From an uncultured Actinomycetota bacterium (GTDB taxonomy: Bacteria > Actinomycetota > Actinomycetes > Mycobacteriales > Mycobacteriaceae), in NCBI GenBank assembly GCA_963809285.1, contig CAWEIY010000002.1:494033-526032 (forward strand): a DNA stretch of 32,000 bases. The letters run 5' to 3'. The position numbers were made by a program, and so were the translations under genes. The notes under the pieces are model-generated. The model made no database searches, was not told the origin of the DNA, and saw nothing but the letters and a program-made list of their open reading frames with translations. Shown here in pieces: positions 3,262-15,092 of this stretch (positions within the stretch are counted from its first letter, which is position 1; every line of letters begins with the position of its first letter).

Positions 3262-3450
3262 GTGCGCAACATCCAGACCATCGACGGGGAACTCCGGCTA
3301 CTGGTCGCGATTCGCCACATGGTCCGCGAGGCCGACGGTCGGTCGCCGAGTACCGCGCAGATAGACGGGTTGCTGGATGAGCGGGCGGCCGTAGCCGCAG
3401 CACGATGGTGGCCACGCTTGGAATCAGCCGAGCAGCCAGCTATGCGGTAG
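3262..3450 (+). CDS. small hypothetical protein, window-internal paralog family (copy A)
   Basis: 62-aa ORF with GTG start (VRNIQTIDGELRLLVAIRHMVREADGRSPSTAQIDGLLDER). It is clearly paralogous to 4286-4447 at both protein and DNA level, including about 45 bp upstream. Confidence 0.45.
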   Translation: MRNIQTIDGELRLLVAIRHMVREADGRSPSTAQIDGLLDERAAVAAARWWPRLESAEQPAMR

Positions 3451-3904: not shown

Positions 3905-4285
3905 TCGCTCTGCTCCCGTCGCTCCCAACAAATCTCGATGGGCGATCGAGACTCGACCGGTCGACGGCCGCTCTCCACCGCTTCGTGGTCCATCATGGCA
4001 GTGCTCGACGGACCGCCGACGCAATAACTGCTTGAGGCGACCTCAGTTCCAACGCAGCCCCAACTCGGCCAAGAGGGCATACTCGGCTGCGAATGGCTTC
4101 TTCGGTTTGCGCCTAACCGCCTTCGTAGTCAGGCTGCGGCTGCCGATGTACACCGGGACGAACAGTTCCCCCAGCAGTCGATCCGGTGCTCCAACTCCAC
4201 CAGGCGAGATGTTCAATCTGAACCTTTCCTCGTCCGGTCACGTGGGTGAAGTGTGAATAACAGTGCGCGGCCTCAAGCTCCGCGC

Positions 4286-4447
4286 ATGCGCGACCTCGAG
4301 ACCATCGACGCCGAACTACGGCTAGTAGTCGGGGCGTGGCGCCTAGCTCGGGTGTTGAACGACCGGACACCGAGCACTGCGGACATAGACGAGCTGCTGG
4401 ACGAGCGCTCGGCAGCCCTCAGCCGCATTGAGGTCCATTCGGCCTAG
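4286..4447 (+). CDS. small hypothetical protein, window-internal paralog family (copy B)
   Basis: MRDLETIDAELRLVVGAWRLARVLNDRTPSTADIDELLDER. The ATG at 4286 aligns with the start of copy A; the track start at 4253 is probably too far upstream. Confidence 0.45.
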   Translation: MRDLETIDAELRLVVGAWRLARVLNDRTPSTADIDELLDERSAALSRIEVHSA

Positions 4448-5302: not shown

Positions 5303-5398
5303 GCCAACGCCGAGAAGGGCATTCAGGCGGTCAAGAAAGCCGCTGCCTACGCGGCCGTTGTCGACCTGACCGAAGAGGGCGCGAAGAAATCAGGGTGA
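5303..5398 (+). pseudogene. C-terminal remnant of a YegP/DUF1508-like gene (copy A)
   Basis: Encodes ANAEKGIQAVKKAAAYAAVVDLTEEGAKKSG*. There is no start codon and no upstream homology in frame. It is about 80 percent identical to 9600-9680 by eye. Confidence 0.4.
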
Positions 5399-5527: not shown

Positions 5528-6490
5528 TTACGCCACGTTCAGCAGGATCTTGCCGCCACGGAGGAGATGCTGCACCGCGTCCTGGATGTGCTCGAGGGGG
5601 TACACGCCCGCCACGGGGACAACGAGGGCGCCGTCGGCCACCAGCGGTGCCGCCTCACGAATGACAGGCACCACCTTGTCGCGGTAGTCGAAGTCGCCGA
5701 CAAAGAATCCGCGGACGGTGAGGTGCTTGCCGACCAGTGTCGAGGTGTCGACCCACATGGGTTCGTCCCTGGCCCAGGAATAGCTGACCAACCATCCACC
5801 GTCGGACAGCAATTCGAGCAGCCGCGCCACCCCCGGACCACCGACGGCTTCCACTGCCAGCGCCACTCGCGCGTCGCCGATCACTGCACGAACATCGCCG
5901 ACCGCATCGGGGTCATCGACGTGGACCACGTCGGCCCCGGCTGCTGTGAGCTCGGCGAACGTTGCGTCGTCACGGACCAGGTTGATCGTCTTCAGTCCAC
6001 GAAGTTTGGCTAGCGCGATCAATGACCGTCCCACACCGGAGTTCGCGGCGTTCTGAACCACCCAGTCACCGGGCTGCAGGGGGGTGCATTCACTGAGCAT
6101 CAACCCTGCCGTCGGGGGGTTGCTGCCCAGCATCGAGTACTGCTCGATGTTGCCGCCGGCGGGGAGTGCGAACAGGCCGTCGGCGGGCACGACGAGCCGC
6201 TCACGCCACGCACCGGCATACAGGGGTAGCACGACCAGATCGCCGACTTGAAGTCCATCGACCTCGGCGCCAGTGGCAAGCACGCGGGCGACCCCCTCTG
6301 CGCCTGGTATGTGGGGCAGGGGTGGTCGCGCCAGCATGCCGCTGACAACCAGTAGGTCGTGTTTGTTCAACGGCGAGACCTCAACGCTCAACAGAACTTC
6401 ATGCGGACCCGGTGGCGGCGGCTCCTCGATGTCGACGACGCGGAGCACCTGCGCGGGGTCGCCGAACTGTTCCATCTGGATGGCGCGCAT
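5528..6490 (-). CDS. zinc-independent MDR-superfamily oxidoreductase (quinone oxidoreductase / enoyl reductase-like)
   Basis: The track ORF extends to 6535. I prefer the ATG at 6490 (MRAIQMEQFGDPAQVLRVV...), giving 320 aa. It has the GroES-like N-domain and a Rossmann motif region (AANSGVGRSLIALAKLRG) typical of QOR/ETR-type MDR enzymes. Confidence 0.85.
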   Translation of the reverse strand: MRAIQMEQFGDPAQVLRVVDIEEPPPPGPHEVLLSVEVSPLNKHDLLVVSGMLARPPLPHIPGAEGVARVLATGAEVDGLQVGDLVVLPLYAGAWRERLVVPADGLFALPAGGNIEQYSMLGSNPPTAGLMLSECTPLQPGDWVVQNAANSGVGRSLIALAKLRGLKTINLVRDDATFAELTAAGADVVHVDDPDAVGDVRAVIGDARVALAVEAVGGPGVARLLELLSDGGWLVSYSWARDEPMWVDTSTLVGKHLTVRGFFVGDFDYRDKVVPVIREAAPLVADGALVVPVAGVYPLEHIQDAVQHLLRGGKILLNVA

Positions 6491-6566
6491 ATCAATTCCT
6501 CTCGATCGAAAGGTCAGGCCGCTATGGAGGACCATCCGACTCCGCTGTGGTACGTAGCGTAAGGCA

Positions 6567-6906
6567 ATGAGTCTGAGCCGGAAGGTCTACGCGCCGCTCC
6601 CTCCCTACGCCGACGAACGGCGGTTCGCTGACGCGTGCTGCGACGAGCTTGCGCCGTACTTCCACATCGAGCGTGAGGTGCCGCTCACTCGCTGGACAAA
6701 GGTGACGCTGATCGTGGACGCAGTGATGCGGCCCCGCGATCCGACGCCATGGAAGGACGACCAGCCGATCTTCGCGGTCGAGTTCAGGAGCGTTCGAAAT
6801 CGACTGGCACGTTCGATACAGCCTGGGCGGCGCAGTCTGTCGACGGGTTTACAACCTGCGTACAACACAGGCGTTTCCAAACCGCTTATCAGGCGCATAT
6901 GTGCTA
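6567..6906 (+). pseudogene. possible gene remnant truncated at the tRNA fragment
   Basis: The first ~75 codons have coding-like GC3 (…IVDAVMRPRDPTPWKDDQPIFAVEFRS, faintly PD-(D/E)xK-like). Composition then degrades and the frame reads straight through the tRNA-Tyr fragment. Confidence 0.25.
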
Positions 6907-6965
6907 GTGGTGGCAGGTACTGGATTCGAACCAGTGAAGCTTTCGCGACGGATTTACAGTCCGCT
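6907..6965 (-). repeat. orphan 3' portion of tRNA-Tyr (distal att repeat)
   Basis: 59 bp identical to 14447-14505. It covers the tRNA from the anticodon stem-loop through the T arm, acceptor stem and CCA. No matching 5' half follows it. Confidence 0.9.
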
Positions 6966-7299
6966 GACACGCATTCGCCTGTGTTCGCTGGTGTTCAGTT
7001 TCACCGGGACTACCAGCGCTTTTTAGCCTCGGACGTTCACCGGTATTCGCGGGCGTCGGGCACGAGATGTGACACGCTCGTGACACCGAGAATTCTTCCC
7101 GCAAAATGCGGATGGCCCCGGCGGCGGCAGGCAGCGCCCCGGGGAATGGCCGACCAACAAGGAGTCGACATACGTCACAAGCGACCACCCGCGGCGCCGG
7201 GCCGAGGCTACGATCACATCGCTTAGAGCGATGCCGCAAATGGTGCCGCGTGAAGAGGAATACATGCCAGCTAAACCCAGGAAAATCACGCTCGCGGCG

Positions 7300-7647
7300 C
7301 TAGCCGTCTGCTCGATTCTTGCCGCCCTGCGCACGGCCGACGAACCGCCAGCCGCCCCCGACGGGGATGTTGCCCAGCTTCTTGACATCGACATGGATTA
7401 GGGCGCCGGGATGATCGTGTTCATAACGGCGAATCTGTTCACCGGTGCGGATGTCGATGTGCGACAACCGGTTGAGCCGGCACCGCACAAGCACCGCATG
7501 AACTGTCGAGGCCGCAACAGACAATCTGGAAGCGATCGCCAACGGCGATAGCCGATACCGCCATCGCAAGTGCACAATCCGTCGAACGACAACGCCTGGC
7601 GTGCGGTTGGGACTGTGGTGAGGTCGACTCGACCTATCCGACATCCC
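7300..7647 (-). mobile_element. IS481-family transposase internal fragment
   Basis: Translation DRSSRPHHSPNRTPGVVVRRIVHLRWRYRLSPLAIASRL...GEQIRRYEHDHPGALIHVDVKKLGNIPVGGGWR matches the region from the HTH to the first catalytic Asp of IS481-type DDE transposases. The N-terminal ~45 aa and the rest of the DDE domain are missing. Confidence 0.7.
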
Positions 7648-7656
7648 GGCCGCACC

Positions 7657-7716
7657 CATAGCCAAATCCGTTGCCGCCGAGGTCATCATCTCCGGCGCCG
7701 CGATCACATACGACAT
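7657..7716 (-). pseudogene. PE-family gene N-terminal stub fused in frame to the IS481 fragment
   Basis: MSYVIAAPEMMTSAATDLA resembles the canonical PE N-terminus (compare [19 protein letters not shown] at 10319 and MSNVMVAPEFVRQAAGQL at 13329). PE homology stops after about 20 codons. Confidence 0.55.
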
Positions 7717-7857
7717 GCACGTCCACCGCCTAACTAGCTAGCCCCTGGTTGTCACTAGCCCGGCGGTCCCTCCACCCGCATGGGTGTAAGGATCATAGAC
7801 AGTCTTGGGCTGTCCGTTACTGGCTTTTGTAAATAGTCGGCAGCCCCACCGCCGTGA

Positions 7858-7947
7858 CTGCGCGACATCGAGACCATCGATTCCGAGCTGCGATTGGTGG
7901 CGGCTCTTCGCTGCCCGCCCAGGCGGGGCCGCTCTACGGGCCGATGA
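7858..7947 (+). pseudogene. degenerate third copy of the small paralog family
   Basis: Encodes LRDIETIDSELRLVAALR. The start position is CTG and is directly preceded by an in-frame TGA. A premature stop follows, and the ADEGQEP stretch that weakly aligns with IDELLDER lies in another frame. Confidence 0.35.
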
Positions 7948-7950
7948 GGG

Positions 7951-8241
7951 TCAGGAACCGGCCTCTCCGAGCAGGCGTAGTTGGGCCGCTGCTATCAGTG
8001 CCTCGGCTTCTGCAATTACTGCTTCTGCCGCCGCCTTCGCTTCTGCCGCTGCCGCTGCCGCTGCTGCCTCGGCCTCTGCTTCCTCGGCGCGGCGCGCCGC
8101 GTCTCCGCGAGTCACCGCCAGCGCGTAAATCAACACCCCGGCGCAGGCTACGACGGACACCACCGGCCCCGCTGCGGCGGTGACGATGAACGCAAAGGAA
8201 AAGCTCAACACAATGAGCCAAATAAGCCTCCTCATCATCAT
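7951..8241 (-). CDS. hypothetical small membrane protein with Ala/Glu-rich tail
   Basis: 96-aa ORF with two hydrophobic segments followed by AEEAEAEAAAAAAAAEAKAAAEAVIAEAEALIAAAQ. Codon usage is AT-richer than neighbouring genes, so this could be a foreign gene or a spurious ORF. Confidence 0.35.
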   Translation of the reverse strand: MMMRRLIWLIVLSFSFAFIVTAAAGPVVSVVACAGVLIYALAVTRGDAARRAEEAEAEAAAAAAAAEAKAAAEAVIAEAEALIAAAQLRLLGEAGS

Positions 8242-8411
8242 GGACGTTAAGTCGGCTCGTACCGCATTTACGTTACCCAGGACCCGCAGGAGATCCGCGA
8301 CCTCGCGACCATGCGCGAACTGGCCTCCAAGGTGCTGGCGTCGGCCGACGACGAGATCGACGCGCTTAACGCTGACTGAAACCTCCTCAGTCGATCCATC
8401 CGCCGTCTAAC

Positions 8412-8492
8412 CGGAACCAGCGCGCAACAGTCCGCGGCTGAATAGTTGATCGGGCCGCCCCTGCTCTCCTCGGGGGCGGCCCGAATGTTCAG
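8412..8492 (+). repeat. ~80-bp hairpin repeat element, copy 1
   Basis: GGAACCAG...CTGAATAGTTGATCGGGCCGCCCC-tgctctcctcg-GGGGCGGCCCGA...TCAGG. It lies between the convergent 3' ends of the 8251-8379 remnant and the SDR gene. Confidence 0.85.
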
Positions 8493-8606
8493 GCGAGCAG
8501 CCAGTCCCCATAGCTGATGGCTGCCCAAACTCCGCAATAGGGGCAACGCCAGACGATTCACCACCTGCACTGCGATCATCGCCATTGACTTCCAGCACGT
8601 GCGTCA

Positions 8607-9392
8607 TCACAGGGTAGTGACGAAGCCGCCGTCGATGCGATAGTCGGATCCGGTGGTGTTCCCGGCGCGGTCGCTGGCAAGGAAGACGACGAGGTCGGCG
8701 ACTTGTTCGGGAGTGGTGAAACGGCCCGTCGGAGTGTTGTTTGCGATCGTCGCCCGGAGTTCCTCGGCCGTCCGGCCGTCGGCGGCGGCATACTCAGCGG
8801 CCAACCTGCCCTCTTCGGTCCAAATCTCGGTCAGCACCGCCCCCGGGCTGACCAAGTTAACTCGGATGTTCTTCGGCGCCAACTCTATTGACAATGCTTT
8901 CGAAAAATTGGCGACGGCAGCTTTGGCGGCGCAATAGTCATAGGTCTCGGGATTGGCAAGGTAGGCGTTGATCGAGCCGATAATGACGATAGAGCCACCG
9001 CCACGCCTTTCGATCTGGGGCAGTGCGGCGCGGGTGGATCGCACGGCGGCCATCACGTTGAGATCCCACGACGCTTGCCACTCGTCGTCGGTGATGCTGG
9101 CCAACCCGCCCGCGCGCACCTTCGCACCGCCGACGTTGTTGACCAGAATGTCGATCCCGCCGCGCTCGGCTGCCACGGCGACCAGCTCGTCGGCGGCGCC
9201 GGGCTGGGACAGGTCGACGGGCACGAACGACACCTGCCCCATCTCTTGAAGCGCCGGCAGTCCCTTCCCAGGGGTCCGTGACCCGGCTACCACGTGCACT
9301 CCCGCATCCACGAGGGCTTTGGCGATCGCGAAACCGATGCCCTTGCTGGTGCCGGTGACCACTGCGGTCTTCCCCGATAGATGCAGATCCAT
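8607..9392 (-). CDS. short-chain dehydrogenase/reductase (classical SDR)
   Basis: The track ORF extends to 9527. I prefer the ATG at 9392 (MDLHLSGKTAVVTGTSKGIGFAIA), giving 261 aa. Motifs TGxxxGIG, NNVG and YDYCAAK (YxxxK) are present. Confidence 0.9.
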   Translation of the reverse strand: MDLHLSGKTAVVTGTSKGIGFAIAKALVDAGVHVVAGSRTPGKGLPALQEMGQVSFVPVDLSQPGAADELVAVAAERGGIDILVNNVGGAKVRAGGLASITDDEWQASWDLNVMAAVRSTRAALPQIERRGGGSIVIIGSINAYLANPETYDYCAAKAAVANFSKALSIELAPKNIRVNLVSPGAVLTEIWTEEGRLAAEYAAADGRTAEELRATIANNTPTGRFTTPEQVADLVVFLASDRAGNTTGSDYRIDGGFVTTL

Positions 9393-9545
9393 GCCCGTCC
9401 TTCCCGCGTCCGCGGCGCGCACGACGCTACCGGTGTACCGTGACCGACCGGCTAGACGATCTGCACCGGCAAGCGTCGGGGCGATAAACCGCGACCGTAC
9501 CCCAGCAAATGGCCCTGGGAGCCTCACCGCTCGGGGGCCGTTGTT

Positions 9546-9680
9546 TTCAAGGCAGCCAACGGCGAGATCATCGCCGCCAGCCAGGCATCTGAAAAGAAGG
9601 CCAACGCGGAGAAGGGAATTGAGGCGGTCAAGAAAGCCGCTGCCGACGCGGCAGTTGTCGACCTGACCGAAGTGAAGTGA
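9546..9680 (+). pseudogene. remnant of a YegP/DUF1508-like gene (copy B)
   Basis: FKAANGEIIAASQASEKKANAEKGIEAVKKAAADAAVVDLTEVK* fits the DUF1508 repeat pattern (LKAxNGEIIxxS...A.KGIxSVK). The frame is open back to 9456 but contains no ATG, GTG or TTG. Confidence 0.5.
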
Positions 9681-9740
9681 CGCCAGCCGCGGCGTCCTGG
9701 ACCCACCGCGACATCCCGCGCTGCTCGATTGAATAGCGTC

Positions 9741-10088
9741 TCAGCGCGCGCCCGAAAAGGTGACCGGGTCATCGGGCCAGCCCGATCCTTCGCGGTGGAC
9801 GGCCGTCACATAGACCAGCACGCAAGTGGCGATGACGAGTGCCAGTGTTATCAGAGCCAGCACCCAAGTGGCCCTCGTTAAGCGCGCCGTCGCCCGACGG
9901 TCCGCTTTCATCCGGTGCTCGACCACCCAGGCATCCATAAGATTCTGCGGGCTGATATTGGTGGTTTGCGGGGAGACAGCGAATGCCTTCCAAATCGCGA
10001 CAAGGCGTTCCTTGTCCACCTTGGTAGGCAGGGGCAGCTGGTCTTCGTTGTCCTTCTTACTCACGGTGTTTGAGGCTAGCGGGCGCAT
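9741..10088 (-). CDS. hypothetical single-pass membrane protein
   Basis: I prefer the ATG at 10088 (MRPLASNTVSKK...), giving 115 aa with a C-proximal TM helix (TWVLALITLALVIATCVLVYVTAV). The longer track ORF (to 10394) would translate through hairpin repeat copy 2. Confidence 0.5.
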   Translation of the reverse strand: MRPLASNTVSKKDNEDQLPLPTKVDKERLVAIWKAFAVSPQTTNISPQNLMDAWVVEHRMKADRRATARLTRATWVLALITLALVIATCVLVYVTAVHREGSGWPDDPVTFSGAR

Positions 10089-10098
10089 CTGCGGCGAC

Positions 10099-10182
10099 GG
10101 AACCAGATCGCTCCCGTCCGCATCTGACTTAGTTGATCGGGCCGCCCCTGCTATCCCCTGGGCGGCCCGATTCATCGTCAGG
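10099..10182 (+). repeat. ~80-bp hairpin repeat element, copy 2
   Basis: GGAACCAG...CTGACTTAGTTGATCGGGCCGCCCC-tgctatcccct-GGGCGGCCCGAT...TCAGG. It lies in the divergent region between the 10088 start (-) and the PE_PGRS start (+). Confidence 0.85.
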
Positions 10183-10318
10183 GGCTCTGACCACACGGTG
10201 AAACGGTGGTTGAACAATGCCGATTTGGGCTGCGTTACCAATTCGACGCGCGTAGCGTTCTGCCGCTGTCTTGAGGATTGTTCTAAGGTGGTGTCGCCCG
10301 AGGTGATGGGAGCCGCAG

Positions 10319-12223
10319 ATGTCGTCTTTTGTGGTCGCAGTACCGGAGGCTTTGGCCACCGCGTCGCAGGATTTGACCGGGATCGGATCGGCAATCCGGG
10401 CGGCCAATGCGGCGGCAGCAGCGCCCACGACAGGGGTGCTGGCCGCCGCGGGTGATGAGGTGTCGGCGGCGATCGCGTCGCTGTTTTCCGGCAATGCCCA
10501 GCAGTATCAGGCGCTGAGCGCCCAGGCCGCGGCGTTTCATTCCCAGTTCGTGCAGACCCTCAATGCGGGTGCGGCTGCCTACGAGAGCACCGAGGCCGCC
10601 AACGTCACGCAGACTCTGCTGAGCACGGTCAACGCGCCCACAGACCGTCTGCTCGGGCGTCCGCTGATCGGCAACGGCGCCAACGGCACGACCAACGCGC
10701 AAGGGGTAGGCACGCCCGGCGGGGCCGGGGGGATCTTGTACGGCAACGGCGGCAACGGCGGGAATAGCACCGTTACCTCCGGGGCACCCGGCGGTAACGG
10801 CGGTCCGGCCGGGTTGATCGGCACCGGCGGCACCGGCGGTATGGGCGGGCGGGGCGCCGCCGGCGGGGCGGGCGGCATCGCGGGGTTGCTGTGGGGCAAC
10901 GGCGGTTCCGGCGGCCCCGGCGGGCCCGCCGCCGGCACCCTCACTGGCGGTAGCGGCGGTCCCGGCGGCATCGGAAGGTTGTTCTTCGGCAACGGTGGCA
11001 CCGGCGGGGTCGGCGGAGCCGGCGGAACCGGTGCAGCCGGCGCAGGCGGGGAGGGCGGGGCGGGCGGCCTCCTGTTCGGCCACGGCGGCAACGGCGGGGC
11101 CGGCGGAGCCGCCGGGGCCGCCGGAACCGGCGCAGGCGGGAGGGGCGGGGAGGGCGGCCTCCTCTTCGGCACCGCTGGCACCAGCGGAGCCGGCGGGTCC
11201 AGCAACGCCGGCGCCCCCCTCGTGCTCACGGCCAACAACCAGGTGGGCGTCATCGGCGTGGCGAACACGGCGTTAATCCTGGGCGGCACCGGATTCACCC
11301 CGCTACATGCGCTCACCGGCGCGACAGGGCCGGGTATCTCTGGCTACGTCACGGCAGTGGAGCAGCTCTACCTCTCCTCCAACTATGCCGGGTACACCCC
11401 GGAATTCCTGGTAACGCCGGAGGAGTTATACCCGCTTACCGGCCTGAGAAGCCTGACTTTCGACGTGTCGGTGGCGCGCGGTGTCAACGATCTGAACGCT
11501 GCGATCATGGCCCAACAGGCAGCGGGACACAGCACCGTCGTTTTCGGCTACTCCCAGAGCGCCACAATAGCCACCCTGGAAGAGCGCCATCTCATGACCC
11601 TGCCTGCCACCCAACGGCCGAGTACCGACCAGCTCTCCTTCGTGCTGGTCGGCAATCCGGACCGGCCCGACGGCGGGCTCCTCGAGCGCTTCAACGGTCT
11701 CTTCATCCAAGATTTGGGCTTCACCTTCTTCGGCGCGACCCCGGTCAATGCCTACCCGACCACCGATATCGCGATCCAGTACGACGGCGCCGCCGACTTC
11801 CCGCAGTACCCGCTCGATATCTTTGCGGACGCCAATGCCGTCGCGGGCTTCATTTCCCTGCACCCCCAGTATTCGTATCTCACGCCCAGCCAGATTGCGT
11901 CAGGTGTGATCGAGCCGGTGTCCCCGACGGACACCGAGACCACCTACATCCTGATTCCAACCCAGAACCTGCCGCTGCTGGACCCGGTACGTGCCATCCC
12001 CTTCGTGGGGAACCCGCTGGCCGACCTGGTGCAACCGGACTTGAAGGTGCTCGTCGAATTGGGCTACGACCGCAGCGCATATCAGGATGTGCCGACCCCC
12101 TCTGGGCTGTTCCCGAACGTCGACCCGGCCACCGTCGCCGCCGAGCTGCAGCAAGGGGCCGTGCAAGGTGTCAACAACGCACTGGCCGATGAGGGATTGC
12201 CGGCGCTGCCGGGTCTTGTCTGA
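10319..12223 (+). CDS. PE_PGRS family protein with C-terminal PE-PPE (alpha/beta serine hydrolase-like) domain
   Basis: 634 aa. The PE domain spans residues 1-95 ([24 protein letters not shown]...) and includes a YxxxE secretion motif (YESTE). A Gly-rich region with GGxGG-type (e.g. GGAGG, GGNGG) repeats covers about residues 125-300. The C-terminal ~320 aa carries the nucleophile-elbow-like [10 protein letters not shown] (Ser412, nt 11552-11554) and later conserved Asp and His candidates ([14 protein letters not shown]). Confidence 0.9.
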
Positions 12224-12407
12224 GCATCCGTTGATCAGCGGATCGACTCGCCCGTGGTTCCGAGGGTTTGCGTTCCGGCGCGCTGCGCGACCGGTGAAAG
12301 CCACCGAGTTCCTTTTAAAGGAACCCCGGAATGACCAGTTGCCTTGTCGATCCCTAAATAGAAATACCCACCGCATCATCGGGAACCGTCGGCGTCGCCC
12401 CAGGGAT

Positions 12408-12492
12408 GGAACCAGCGCGCCGCCGCGCGCGTCTGAATAGTTGATCGGGCCGCCCCTCGCTCTCCTGGGGGCGGCCCGATCTCTCGGTCAGG
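12408..12492 (+). repeat. ~80-bp hairpin repeat element, copy 3
   Basis: GGAACCAGCGCGC...CTGAATAGTTGATCGGGCCGCCCC-tcgctctcctg-GGGGCGGCCCGATC...TCAGG, with a perfect 14-bp stem. It lies about 185 bp downstream of the PE_PGRS stop. Confidence 0.85.
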
Positions 12493-12549
12493 TGGGGTTG
12501 CGCCGTTCAGCGGATCCGCATTTACGGCCGAGCTGGACGGGTTGACACA

Positions 12550-12885
12550 ATGACCGCCATGGACACCCCGTTGATGCGGCTCGCGCGCTACATCGACGAC
12601 CACTACGGCGACCCGCTACTATCCGAGCCCGGTGACGACGTCCGCATCTATCGCACCGCATCAATGACGCTGTGCTGTCGCGGTTTCGGCCCCGAAGACC
12701 GAACCGACCCGGTGACGGTGCCGATCGAGACCGCCGCCGCCACACTGTCCTCGACACCCTCGGAGATCGTCGACGTCGCCCTGTCCGACAAAATCACAGA
12801 CCCAGACAACCTTGGCGTCGTGCTGGTCACTGACGGGTTGTGTTTGCACGTGCAGCGCTCATGGCTGGATGCGGTGGCCGACTAG
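12550..12885 (+). CDS. hypothetical protein
   Basis: 111-aa ORF with ATG start and strong GC3 bias typical of real mycobacterial genes. No family recognised. Confidence 0.5.
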   Translation: MTAMDTPLMRLARYIDDHYGDPLLSEPGDDVRIYRTASMTLCCRGFGPEDRTDPVTVPIETAAATLSSTPSEIVDVALSDKITDPDNLGVVLVTDGLCLHVQRSWLDAVAD

Positions 12886-13328
12886 ATGGCAGCCAGCACC
12901 GGCACAACGGAGCCTTGTGGCTCCACAACATCAGGACGACTACTGCATGCCGGGCGGTTGACCGATGCTGAATGTGTTCCGTGCACACCCCCAAACGTTA
13001 AGGAGGTGAGTTAGACGCTAGCGCAGATTCTGAGTCCCGAGATGATAGGCACGGTTGCGATTGCATCGTGGTCTGTGATCGGTCGACGCCAGCGCCAACG
13101 TATCCGCCGCGCCTGGACGCAAATTCGAAACAAATTTTCTGTGCAGGAGCCGTCACGCTCAGCACCGTGGGCGGTGGAACCGGCCCCAGGAACCCCTTCG
13201 AACCCAGGGGCCGGCCCACCTTTTTCTCGGCGCGGCTAGGAAGTTAGCTGTTTTAAGGATTTCGATCGCGCCGACCCCTTTCCTTCGATACGCTTGTTGT
13301 TCTTCATGTGTCTGATAGGAGGTAGGCC

Positions 13329-13793
13329 ATGTCCAATGTGATGGTGGCGCCGGAGTTTGTGCGCCAGGCGGCAGGGCAATTGCAGAACATTGGCTCCTCC
13401 TTGACTGAGGCCAATGCGGCGGCATCGACGCCCACGACCGCGGTGCTGGCCCCGGCTAGTGATGAGGTGTCGGCGGCCATTACGGCGCTGATGGGAACCC
13501 ACGCTCAGCAGTTCCAGGCCGTCAGTGCCCAGGCGGCGAAGTTTCATAGCCAGTTCGTGGGCTTGTTGAACACTGGCGCGGCCGCGTACTCGGGCACCGA
13601 AGCCGCCAATACCCAACCCCTCGCCGATCTAACGCCCGAAGAAATCGTAGATATCAACCACAAGGACGCGGCCTTAATCGAAGCGCTAGCGGAAAACGAC
13701 CTCCGCGCCGGACGTTCCGACCTGACACGCATCGACGACAGAATACGTAGGTACACCCTGCTCAAAACGCTTATACCGATCTATAGCCCCTAG
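13329..13793 (+). CDS. PE family protein (PE domain plus short unique tail)
   Basis: 154 aa (MSNVMVAPEFVRQAAGQLQNIGSSLTEANAAASTPTTAVLAPASDEVSAAITAL...) with a YSGTE (YxxxE) motif. A GGAGG Shine-Dalgarno sequence lies 5 nt upstream of the ATG. The C-terminal ~55 aa are AT-richer. Confidence 0.8.
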   Translation: MSNVMVAPEFVRQAAGQLQNIGSSLTEANAAASTPTTAVLAPASDEVSAAITALMGTHAQQFQAVSAQAAKFHSQFVGLLNTGAAAYSGTEAANTQPLADLTPEEIVDINHKDAALIEALAENDLRAGRSDLTRIDDRIRRYTLLKTLIPIYSP

Positions 13794-13890
13794 CCGGCGG
13801 CGCCCAAAAGCGATGCGGCTCAACTGCGCTCCGTTTGGGTCAAGTGCTTTCATGCTGGGAACGCGGCGCCCGCAGGGATGCAGGAGGTAA

Positions 13891-14418
13891 GCCGTCGCCC
13901 TCGCGGGCGCCGACGAGTTGCCGCCGCGCTCCATTCGTATTGCGGAAAACCGGATTTACCTTCCGGGCCGAATCGTGGAGAGCACCCCCAAATCCAAGGC
14001 GTCCAATCGGACATTGCCTATGCCTGACGAAATTGTGGAAATCCTCAAGGCGGCCCGCAAGCGCCAACTTGAAGAGCGGCTGGCATTCGGGGTCGGATAC
14101 GGCGGCGCGGAATACGTCGGCACCGATGAGACCGGCCAGCCGTACACCCCCAACGTCCTGTCGTATCGCTGGGGCAGGATGCTCGACGTGTTGGAGATCA
14201 AGCGGGTGCGGCTACACGACGCGCGGCACAGCTGCGCGACCCTAATGCATCACCGGCAGGTGCCCATCGCCGTCATCGCCGCGTGGCTGGGGCACGCCAA
14301 CGCAGCGTTCACCATGGCCACCTACGCACACTCCCAAGACGCCGCGCTGCGGTCCGCCGCAGGCAGTTTCGGTCGAGGTGTGACATTCGGTGACACCGAA
14401 GCCGGCTCGGGGGACTGA
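13891..14418 (+). pseudogene. tyrosine recombinase (phage-type integrase), C-terminal catalytic fragment only
   Basis: Translation ...PKSKASNRTLPMPDEIVEILK...RLHDARHSCATLM...IAAWLGHANAAFTMATYAH contains the Arg, HxxR and terminal Tyr catalytic motifs. The frame is closed by TAA at 13888-13890, so at most ~175 aa remain of an expected 330-400 aa. It ends 29 bp from the tRNA-Tyr 3' end. Confidence 0.8.
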
Positions 14419-14447
14419 CGCACCCCCAGAAACATGCTCTGAGCTGG

Positions 14448-14531
14448 TGGTGGCAGGTACTGGATTCGAACCAGTGAAGCTTTCGCGACGGATTTACAGT
14501 CCGCTCCCATTGGCCGCTCGGGCAACCTGCC
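14448..14531 (-). tRNA. tRNA-Tyr (anticodon GTA), with encoded CCA
   Basis: Manual cloverleaf: GGCAGGT-TG-CCCG-AGCGGCCAAT-GGGA-G-CGGA-CTGTAAA-TCCG, then TCGCGAAAGCTTC as the remaining stretch containing the long variable arm, then ACTGG-TTCGAAT-CCAGT-ACCTGCC-A-CCA. As I recall the E. coli tRNA-Tyr sequence, the layout is near-identical. Confidence 0.95.
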
Positions 14532-14600
14532 GCCAGACAGGTTACAACGAACGGGTAGACAGGGCACAAACGGCTATCACCGGATGAAAGGACGGATCGA

Positions 14601-15092
14601 ATGGCTGACTCATCGTTCGACATCGTCAGCAAGGTCGACCGGCAGGAGGTCGACAACGCGTTGAATCAGGCGGCCAAGGAGCTGGCCACCCGCTTCGACT
14701 TCCGCGGCACCGACACCAAGATCGCGTGGAAGGGCGACGAGGCCGTCGAGCTGACGTCGTCGACTGAGGAGCGCGTGAAGGCGGCCATCGACGTCTTCAA
14801 GGAGAAGCTGATCCGCCGCGACATCTCGATGAAGGCGTTCGACGCCGGGGAGCCGCAGGCGTCGGGGAAGGCCTACAAGGTCACCGGCACGCTCAAGCAG
14901 GGCATCGACAGCGAGAACGCCAAGAAGATCACCAAGCTCATCCGCGACGAGGGACCCAAGAACGTCAAGACCCAGATCCAGGGCGACGAGGTCCGCGTCA
15001 CCAGCAAAAAGCGTGACGATCTGCAGGCCGTCATCGCGATGCTGAAGAAGGCCGACCTGGACGTGGCGCTGCAGTTCGTCAACTACCGGTAG
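14601..15092 (+). CDS. yajQ: YajQ family (UPF0234) nucleotide-binding protein
   Basis: 163 aa ([36 protein letters not shown]...) with the typical YajQ N-terminus and length. The position corresponds to Rv0566c. Confidence 0.9.

Follow-up and report, generated by a model that had tools for sequence, protein, structure and literature searches.

The stretch of DNA analysed here (hereafter "the window") comprises 32,000 nucleotides of contig CAWEIY010000002.1 (positions 494,033 to 526,032, forward strand) from an uncultured member of the Mycobacteriaceae, assembly GCA_963809285.1. Within it, three copies of an element of ~80 bp sit in a segment of ~7.5 kb, bounded by two 66-nt direct repeats (6900–6965 and 14440–14505) that are 97% identical and correspond to the 3' part of tRNA-Tyr. 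The cargo of the segment includes an SDR gene on the minus strand, a PE-PGRS/PE-PPE gene and a PE gene. Among 40 relatives, counterparts were found only for the tRNA side and the far left flank, and we thus regard the segment as a strain-specific integrated island. The element, which recurs in many other mycobacterial genomes, is tentatively interpreted below as a recombination joint between gene modules. The features of the island are as follows:

6900–6979, minus strand: partial tRNA-Tyr copy, the left att-like direct repeat (tRNA model, 22.7 bits).
8412–8497, plus strand: element copy 1 (covariance model, 89.8 bits), with its 5' box at 8413–8447, three-frame stops at 8439–8449 (starting at 8439, 8443 and 8447), left arm GATCGGGCCGCCCC at 8448–8461, spacer or loop TGCTCTCCTC(G) at 8462–8472, right arm at 8472–8485 and TCAGG at 8489–8493.
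8607–9527, minus strand: SDR oxidoreductase gene between copies 1 and 2, opposed to the orientation of the element.
9726–9798, plus strand: possible degenerate fourth copy (weak; 21.5 bits, E about 1e-4).
10098–10183, plus strand: element copy 2 (86.7 bits), with stop block variant CTGACTTAGTTGA and loop TGCTATCCCCT.
10319–12223, plus strand: PE-PGRS gene carrying a PE-PPE domain; it separates copies 2 and 3 and runs in the same direction as the elements.
12407–12492, plus strand: element copy 3 (84.4 bits), 97% identical to L014:3523.
13918–14418, plus strand: truncated tyrosine integrase, C-terminal catalytic part (PF00589, E=4e-13), convergent with the tRNA.
14448–14531, minus strand: intact tRNA-Tyr(GTA), the right island boundary (tRNA model).

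The element has the consensus CGGAACCAGATCGCCCTAGTCCGCGTCTGAATAGTTGATCGGGCCGCCCCTGCTCTCCTCGGGGGCGGCCCGATTCATC and consists of (i) a 5' box, GGAACC-N13-GTCCGCGTCTGAATAGTT (which can also be written as GGAACC, ~13 variable nt and GTCCGCGTCTGA(A)TAGTT), and (ii) 14-bp inverted arms, GATCGGGCCGCCCC and GGGGCGGCCCGAT, that flank an asymmetric, conserved 11-nt spacer, TGCTCTCCTCG. An initial annotation, made from the letters of the window alone, had described three copies of common architecture on one strand, and this description holds: a covariance model built from copies in the source genome scores the three window copies at 84–90 bits, and the window contains exactly three instances of the 19-mer TAGTTGATCGGGCCGCCCC, where 0.02 would be expected from shuffles. 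No further occurrence of the 19-mer was found in the window, even at three mismatches. The annotation was also correct in placing GGAACCAG at the start of every copy, in reading TGA, TAG and TGA in all three frames of copies 1 and 3 (with only two frames stopped in copy 2, CTGACTTAGTTGA), and in its account of the GC stem (measured at 13–15 bp in the three copies), the loop variants GCTCTCCT and GCTATCCC, and the TCAGG tail. The gene contexts that it assigned—convergent gene ends, a divergent promoter region, and the downstream side of the PE-PGRS gene—are roughly right: copy 1 is followed by the SDR gene, and copies 2 and 3 have the PE-PGRS gene between them, with copy 3 lying 184 nt past the PE-PGRS/PE-PPE stop codon.

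The possible fourth copy retains TTGAATAG and an outer stem (ATCGGGCC..GCCCGATC) but has no inner stem-loop. It comes 46 nt after the second member of a 73-nt duplicate (5303–5375 and 9600–9672, 93% identity), which encodes the end of a YegP/DUF1508-like ORF. In L027, a homologue of the YegP/DUF1508-like gene is followed by a full element.

Two further claims, that the family is private and that it lies entirely inside the island, fell once the rest of the source genome was searched. In this genome (5.36 Mb, 18 contigs), ~18 copies are spread over 11 loci, most of which hold a cluster of 2–4; a hairpin-only family with the CTCTCC loop was considered and set aside, as it added just two copies. 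Across the genus, the 25-mer core (allowing up to three mismatches) is present in 24 of 201 genomes, and a reversed-pattern control in none; one genome, G109, accounts for 38 model hits. An exact-match scan of species-representative genomes returned 60 stretches, nearly all of which come from isolates of Mycobacterium or from metagenome-assembled genomes (MAGs) of soil; cultured carriers among them are Mycobacterium sp. 852002-10029, Mycobacterium sp. 852002-51057 and M. numidiamassiliense. Full-length copies were confirmed by the model in the Mycobacterium and soil MAG stretches, but not in a Nocardia stretch or in five stretches from non-actinobacterial bins. A contig of a MAG labelled Bacteroidales (L065) carries a full-length copy (48 bits) and is probably a mycobacterial contig in the wrong bin. 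Metagenomes contain at least 120 stretches with the element, and all of those listed come from soil projects. Searches of Rfam with window positions 6000–15000 passed only tRNAs, even with the E-value limit relaxed to 10, and the element was unmatched in plasmids, phages and viral contigs, as well as in the literature searched by sequence and by topic. This is a widespread and apparently undescribed family of ~80-bp elements of soil mycobacteria.

Conservation along the element is uneven. The element begins abruptly, with information content rising from 0.0–0.3 bits per position upstream to 1.4–1.9 bits at GGAACC, and ends after GGGGCGGCCCG; beyond lies a weak tail, with T enriched in the 8 nt next to the stem. 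Conservation reaches 80–99% in GGAACC, GTCCGCGTCTGA, both arms and the 11-nt loop, and 55–70% at positions 8–20 and in the tail. Copies are equally diverged within genomes and between genomes (identity 0.77 in both cases), and the nearest relatives of copies in the source genome lie mostly in other genomes. The uneven conservation and the equal divergence together argue for selection on the sequence, and against a recent burst of copying. In a sample of copies found by the model rather than by an exact word, 92% of stem cells are paired, and changes on both sides of the arms occupy 12 cells, as opposed to 2.1 in shuffles (0/500 shuffles as high). Arm symmetry is maintained, which is compatible with a hairpin and also with a pair of equivalent arms for protein binding. 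With a 5' box and loop conserved across genomes, the element is, as the initial annotation held, a dispersed and specific family rather than a generic GC hairpin or a single shared terminator.

Several other accounts of the 5' side of the element were considered and set aside. A tRNA or att origin of the 5' box is unsupported: its best alignment, to tRNA-Val(CAC), was reached by 1/100 shuffles, and nhmmer found nothing. Coding by the 5' box (frame RNQIALVRV, then a stop) was rejected on substitutions that, judged by eye, lack a synonymous bias. Finally, a candidate shared upstream motif, GCGTGCGCGAGGAACT, occurs in only 6/86 copies.

The strongest features of the element—its co-oriented arrays, its position at mosaic joints, and its island linkage—were missed in the initial annotation. 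Firstly, neighbouring copies within 10 kb of each other are co-oriented in a ratio of 32:2 in genomes (p=7e-8), and of 34:2 in independent metagenome contigs; the overall ratio is 70:4. Genes between co-oriented copies point either way (15 co-oriented with the elements, 22 anti-oriented, on gene calls in the islands from a simple codon-usage caller that is noisy for small genes), and so co-orientation is not a by-product of the direction of transcription. Replichore polarity was also rejected as the cause: by GC skew, six of the loci in the source genome are leading and five are lagging.

Secondly, copies tend to share sequence with one another on one side only. Of all the copy pairs whose flanks could be used, 106 have only the 60 nt upstream in common, 104 only the 60 nt downstream, and 29 both; the one-sided pairs form 20 and 31 independent groups. 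The ~100-nt upstream flank of copy 3, for example, is common to copies in L014 and L029 (two other genomes), and the downstream flanks of these differ. Such flank groups chain combinatorially: copy 3 matches L014 and L029 upstream, L014 matches L032 downstream, and the upstream flank of L032 matches that of a copy in the source genome at C2:78045. The shared ~100-nt flank of copy 3 includes an AT-rich stretch (12290–12406) with a palindrome (ttccttttaaaggaa), and a terminator scan reported a terminator-like hairpin in it, at 12292–12306.

The element itself is divided in the same way as its flanks. Identity in excess of background is seen at positions 0–28 in copies that share the upstream flank, at positions 61–78 in those that share the downstream flank, and in the spacer with both. 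The 5' box follows the upstream flank, and the 3' arm follows the downstream one. In individual informative cases the switch lies at positions 58–72, and in a minority at the 5' base of the stem, immediately after GTTGATCGGG, including a hybrid of two hairpin subfamilies. Half-sites also occur, consisting either of the box and left arm without the right arm, or of the right arm and tail without the box, with breaks at the stem base.

Thirdly, a module is present in one sequence and absent from two others. L058 carries an element (E1), a 540-bp module and a second element (E2), where L034 and L046 carry a single element with the upstream flank of E1 and the downstream flank of E2. At all 13 informative positions as far as position 57 this single element agrees with E1, and at all 4 from position 69 it agrees with E2. 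E1 and E2 are about 77% identical, and the exchange falls in TCGGGGGCGGC, their longest identical run (11 nt). No empty site, in which two flanks are joined without an element, was found among the loci compared; in comparisons of the island and two other loci with relatives, whole regions were variable, and no clean pair of filled and empty sites was found.

These patterns could also arise if the element were a passive patch of homology: a functionless but conserved 3' flank of old mobile genes, used by general (RecA or microhomology) recombination. Such a patch would, alone, create co-oriented arrays and mosaic joints, and Campbell-type homologous insertion likewise gives direct repeats. The broad region to which exchange maps (about positions 30–72), the use of the longest identical run in the sole deletion or insertion case, and the fact that no recombinase has been identified are all in keeping with it. 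However, copies only about 77% identical over 80 bp are a poor substrate for RecA. Linkage to the upstream flank is flat over positions 0–27, whereas uniform crossovers would predict decay, and the uneven conservation, highest in arms and spacer and including unpaired positions, together with compensated changes in the arms, implies selection on the sequence. On balance we consider a functionless patch unlikely.

A different explanation is that the element is selfish and non-autonomous—akin to MITEs (miniature inverted-repeat transposable elements), repetitive extragenic palindromic (REP) sequences or PATEs—and inserts itself into intergenic island DNA by means of a transposase encoded elsewhere. 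Both edges are indeed sharp (from under 0.3 to 1.6–1.9 bits at GGAACC), copies are numerous, dispersed and patchy across the genus, and three diverged copies lie head to tail at L104:6119–6403. On the other hand, target-site duplications, for which the initial annotation had suggested looking, are absent: the longest k-mer shared by the two flanks averages 4.09, compared with 4.02 +/- 0.08 when flanks are re-paired as a control. Nor does the element have terminal inverted repeats, as only 4/99 copies show GGTTCY after the stem. No target motif at insertion points is seen in the information profile of the flanks, and no empty site was found. The Y1 (RAYT/TnpA) transposase (PF01797) is absent from the three carrier genomes G000, G109 and G086, in a search that detected it in one non-carrier genome and in control genomes; a Y2 (IS91/ISCR) transposase was not found either, in a search without a working positive control. 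Identity within genomes equals that between genomes, the nearest relatives lie mostly in other genomes, and random insertion would not yield a co-orientation of 70:4. A selfish element is thus very unlikely, and two roles floated in the initial annotation fare poorly: MITE membership is rejected for want of terminal inverted repeats, target-site duplications or a single-genome burst of copying, and membership of REP/BIME or IS200/IS605-derived PATE families for want of the Y1 transposase in the three carriers. Targeting of the element by IS110 was likewise rejected, with the ends of the insertion sequence ~250 nt from the element in L052.

Some copies depart from the standard form. In the head-to-tail trio at L104:6119–6403 (G109:C10:154118–154402), which has no gene between copies, the middle copy represents a subfamily whose arms are GGGCCGGC.. 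and whose loop is AATCCTCC. At L038:7134 and L052:5068–5186, the same insert of ~40 nt replaces the loop (CCCCTG, then TGTGCCC..AAATTGTT, then GGGCGG).

The genomic setting of the copies is that of variable islands, most of them linked to tRNA genes and integrases. At six of the 11 loci in the source genome, a gene for a tyrosine recombinase is no more than 4 kb away (~4% estimated by chance), usually beside tRNA genes (Tyr, Gly, Lys, and a Val/Cys/Gly cluster), and the layout of array, integrase and convergent tRNA is repeated in L043, L047 and L104. The integrases beside arrays are only 23–53% identical to one another, which places the element in a pool of cargo rather than in a single island lineage. 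Neighbouring genes are similarly diverse, and include PE/PPE, SDR, hydrolase-cyclase and kinase genes and many genes for small proteins.

The commonest neighbour family, found at 18 element loci, encodes a protein of ~62 aa that starts MR(D/N)(I/L)(E/Q)TIDxELRL.. and is unmatched in Pfam; its database relatives are annotated only as "hypothetical". In the window, members lie at 3262–3450 and 4253–4447, with a remnant at about 7855–7947; at C2:800368 and in L038 and L019, the frame of this family enters the element and stops at its stop block. Three arrays in the source genome (C1:14.4–15.0 kb, C16:70–72 kb and C8:612 kb; L086, L087 and L089) contain paralogous small genes that, read from the flanking sequence, encode a Trp/Gly-rich motif (..WCPGEFWDPGWGDNWDWGRCHDW..). 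Elsewhere in the same genome, three adjacent tyrosine recombinase matches at C10:124328–126504 may represent a "recombinase in trio" element. A minus-strand ORF (7300–7716) at the left end of the window island has no Pfam match; in it a PE-like N-terminus is joined to what looks like the core of a transposase or integrase (..HVDVKKLGNIP..), and the ORF is probably a mobile-element gene in decay.

The position of copies relative to gene ends raises another alternative: that the element acts at the level of RNA, at the ends of transcripts. The element would be transcribed along with cargo genes, the three-frame stop block would end incoming translation, the hairpin would end or stabilize the transcript or be cut by RNase III, and the position at joints would merely reflect modules breaking between genes. 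In favour of such a role, the three window copies fold stably on the plus strand, at -37 to -51 kcal/mol with z-scores of -2.3 to -4.3, the tail is T-enriched, and a GTCA/TCAG motif able to pair with TCTGA is found in 28/73 tails (7/73 in controls). Changes compatible with G-U pairing number 67 on the plus strand and 38 on the minus strand, and ~11 upstream co-oriented and ~9 downstream anti-oriented genes end at the element, the latter at its 3' edge. There is also a precedent for sequence-conserved hairpins at mycobacterial gene ends, namely TRIT, the Tuberculosis Rho-independent terminator (PMC3152330, PMC13714241). However, the hairpin is not followed by a U-tract, and the terminator scan (criterion: at least five T in eight) calls none of the three copies; mycobacterial RNA polymerase is reported to require a U-tract (PMC3993855). 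Orientation is independent of genes (the 15 co-oriented and 22 anti-oriented genes given above), 24% of copies lie between divergent genes, and the PE-PGRS gene has terminator-like hairpins of its own upstream of copy 3. An RNA role would also leave unexplained the co-orientation of 70:4 and the conservation of the loop sequence and of the unpaired 5' box. A canonical intrinsic terminator is accordingly rejected (the hairpin is present, with no U-tract call and an orientation independent of genes), and the "stop-and-terminate cassette" of the initial annotation fares poorly on the same grounds; a broader role at transcript ends we regard as unlikely.

We favour the reading in which the element is a recombination joint for gene modules in the mobilome of mycobacterial islands, since co-orientation, mosaic joints and module polymorphism are the products expected when directly repeated sites recombine. 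This remains a tentative preference, held at somewhat less than even confidence. Modules would enter, leave and be swapped by crossing-over between co-oriented copies, in the manner of Campbell-type insertion or excision of a circle bearing one copy. Exchange inside the palindrome would leave the 5' box and left arm upstream and the right arm downstream; the asymmetric spacer would set the polarity of the site, and the one-sided 5' box would be an accessory arm. A recombinase core site with an accessory arm would explain the conservation of unpaired positions, and the earlier suggestion of a protein-binding module is compatible with it. A secondary effect on RNA, through the three-frame stop and the stable hairpin, is possible in this scheme and is not required by it.

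A number of observations weigh against a recombination joint, or against a dedicated enzyme acting at it. No recombinase is tied to the element, and the integrases beside arrays each seem to use their own tRNA att site; no integron integrase was found in five carrier genomes (TIGR02249). At 11 nt, the spacer is longer than the overlap (6–8 bp) in the core sites of known tyrosine recombinases. Exchange maps to a zone and not to a single nucleotide (positions 58–72, with a few cases at 31–43), partly because the left arm is invariant through ascertainment and hides information on the switch there. With the exchange point broad and the left arm uninformative, a homologous or microhomology mechanism fits nearly as well. 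The module present in L058 is the only such case, and an 11-nt microhomology deletion would explain it; moreover, many copy pairs come from related genomes or samples, and are hence non-independent. Finally, the modest excess of G-U-compatible changes on the plus strand, the T-enriched tail, and the ends of ~11 co-oriented upstream genes within ~30 nt of the element or inside it point to some RNA-level role. The breadth of the exchange zone, the single insertion or deletion and the non-independence of pairs are the reasons why we grant a dedicated site-specific recombination system only part of our confidence in the joint, and consider it somewhat unlikely; RecA or microhomology acting on the repeat in its place is less likely still.

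Of known systems, integrons offer a close parallel in overall organization. The arrays of attC sites and cassettes, including CALINs, resemble those described here in their short palindromic sites (57–141 bp for attC), co-oriented arrays, and modules of 0.3–6 kb between sites; combinatorial shuffling of modules, a site mostly inherited with one neighbouring module, and nearby tyrosine recombinase genes are further likenesses. There are also differences. No IntI was found, the best TIGR02249 match in the five carrier genomes scoring 79 bits against a cut-off of 265; attC sites conserve structure only, whereas the element conserves sequence (80–99% in its core); and GTTGATC lies 5' of the stem in the element, whereas the attC motif GTTRRRY lies at the 3' end. 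Cassette genes are mostly co-oriented with their sites, unlike the genes of the modules (15 versus 22), and there are many short arrays per genome in tRNA-linked islands instead of one platform. We thus reject integron membership on integrase, gene orientation and attC anatomy; the co-orientation of sites (70:4) is shared. Integrons are not known to be native to Actinobacteria.

Sites for Xer and related recombinases provide a second comparison. The lox, FRT and dif core sites, and Xer-dependent modules such as IMEX elements and the pdif modules of Acinetobacter plasmids, would share with the element inverted protein-binding arms and an asymmetric spacer that sets polarity; accessory sequences on one side only (cer/psi), and recombinase-free modules bounded by sites, would be further likenesses. 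Xer sites (dif/pdif) are 28-bp XerC/XerD sites, and their modules are bounded by inverted site pairs, whereas the element occurs in direct pairs. The spacer of the element is also longer (11 nt, versus 6–8 bp), and its arms are GC-rich and apparently bear no likeness to the A/T-rich dif.

Among described mycobacterial sequences, TRIT is the closest. Like the element, TRITs are palindromic hairpins of conserved sequence that are confined to Mycobacterium, lie at the ends of genes, have no U-tract and are suspected of requiring a trans-acting factor (PMC3152330); processing by RNase III has been proposed (PMC13714241). They are about 50 nt long, are reported from most mycobacteria including M. 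tuberculosis (147 copies), and overlap stop codons at about -8, whereas the element has its core in 24/201 genus genomes, bears a one-sided 5' box of 40 nt, and resides in islands. In this comparison, made on published descriptions, the distribution argues against identity of the two. MIRU, REP/BIME and Correia-type repeats are similar in being intergenic and 40–150 bp long and in containing inverted repeats rich in GC; some occur in tandem, and some affect transcripts; the element differs from them in having no terminal inverted repeats, target-site duplications or RAYT, and in forming co-oriented arrays at mosaic joints. MIRUs, with which the element was compared by description only, have small ORFs that overlap flanking genes within operons (PMC3184786).

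Little is known of how mycobacterial islands take up and reshuffle their cargo, which here includes PE/PPE proteins, oxidoreductases, kinases, cyclases and small secreted proteins. The element may, though we think it somewhat improbable, belong to an integron-independent gene-cassette system of soil mycobacteria, with a lox-like site of ~80 bp and a recombinase that would recognize it; such an enzyme would insert and excise promoter-bearing modules, including PE/PPE genes, in tRNA-linked islands. Should the element act on RNA instead, it would be a second class of sequence-conserved mycobacterial hairpin beside TRIT, whose mechanism remains open. A short joint sequence of this kind, marking the points at which modules have been swapped, would be of practical help in annotating the flexible genomes of opportunistic and environmental mycobacteria, and would offer a concrete handle on a new recombination system.

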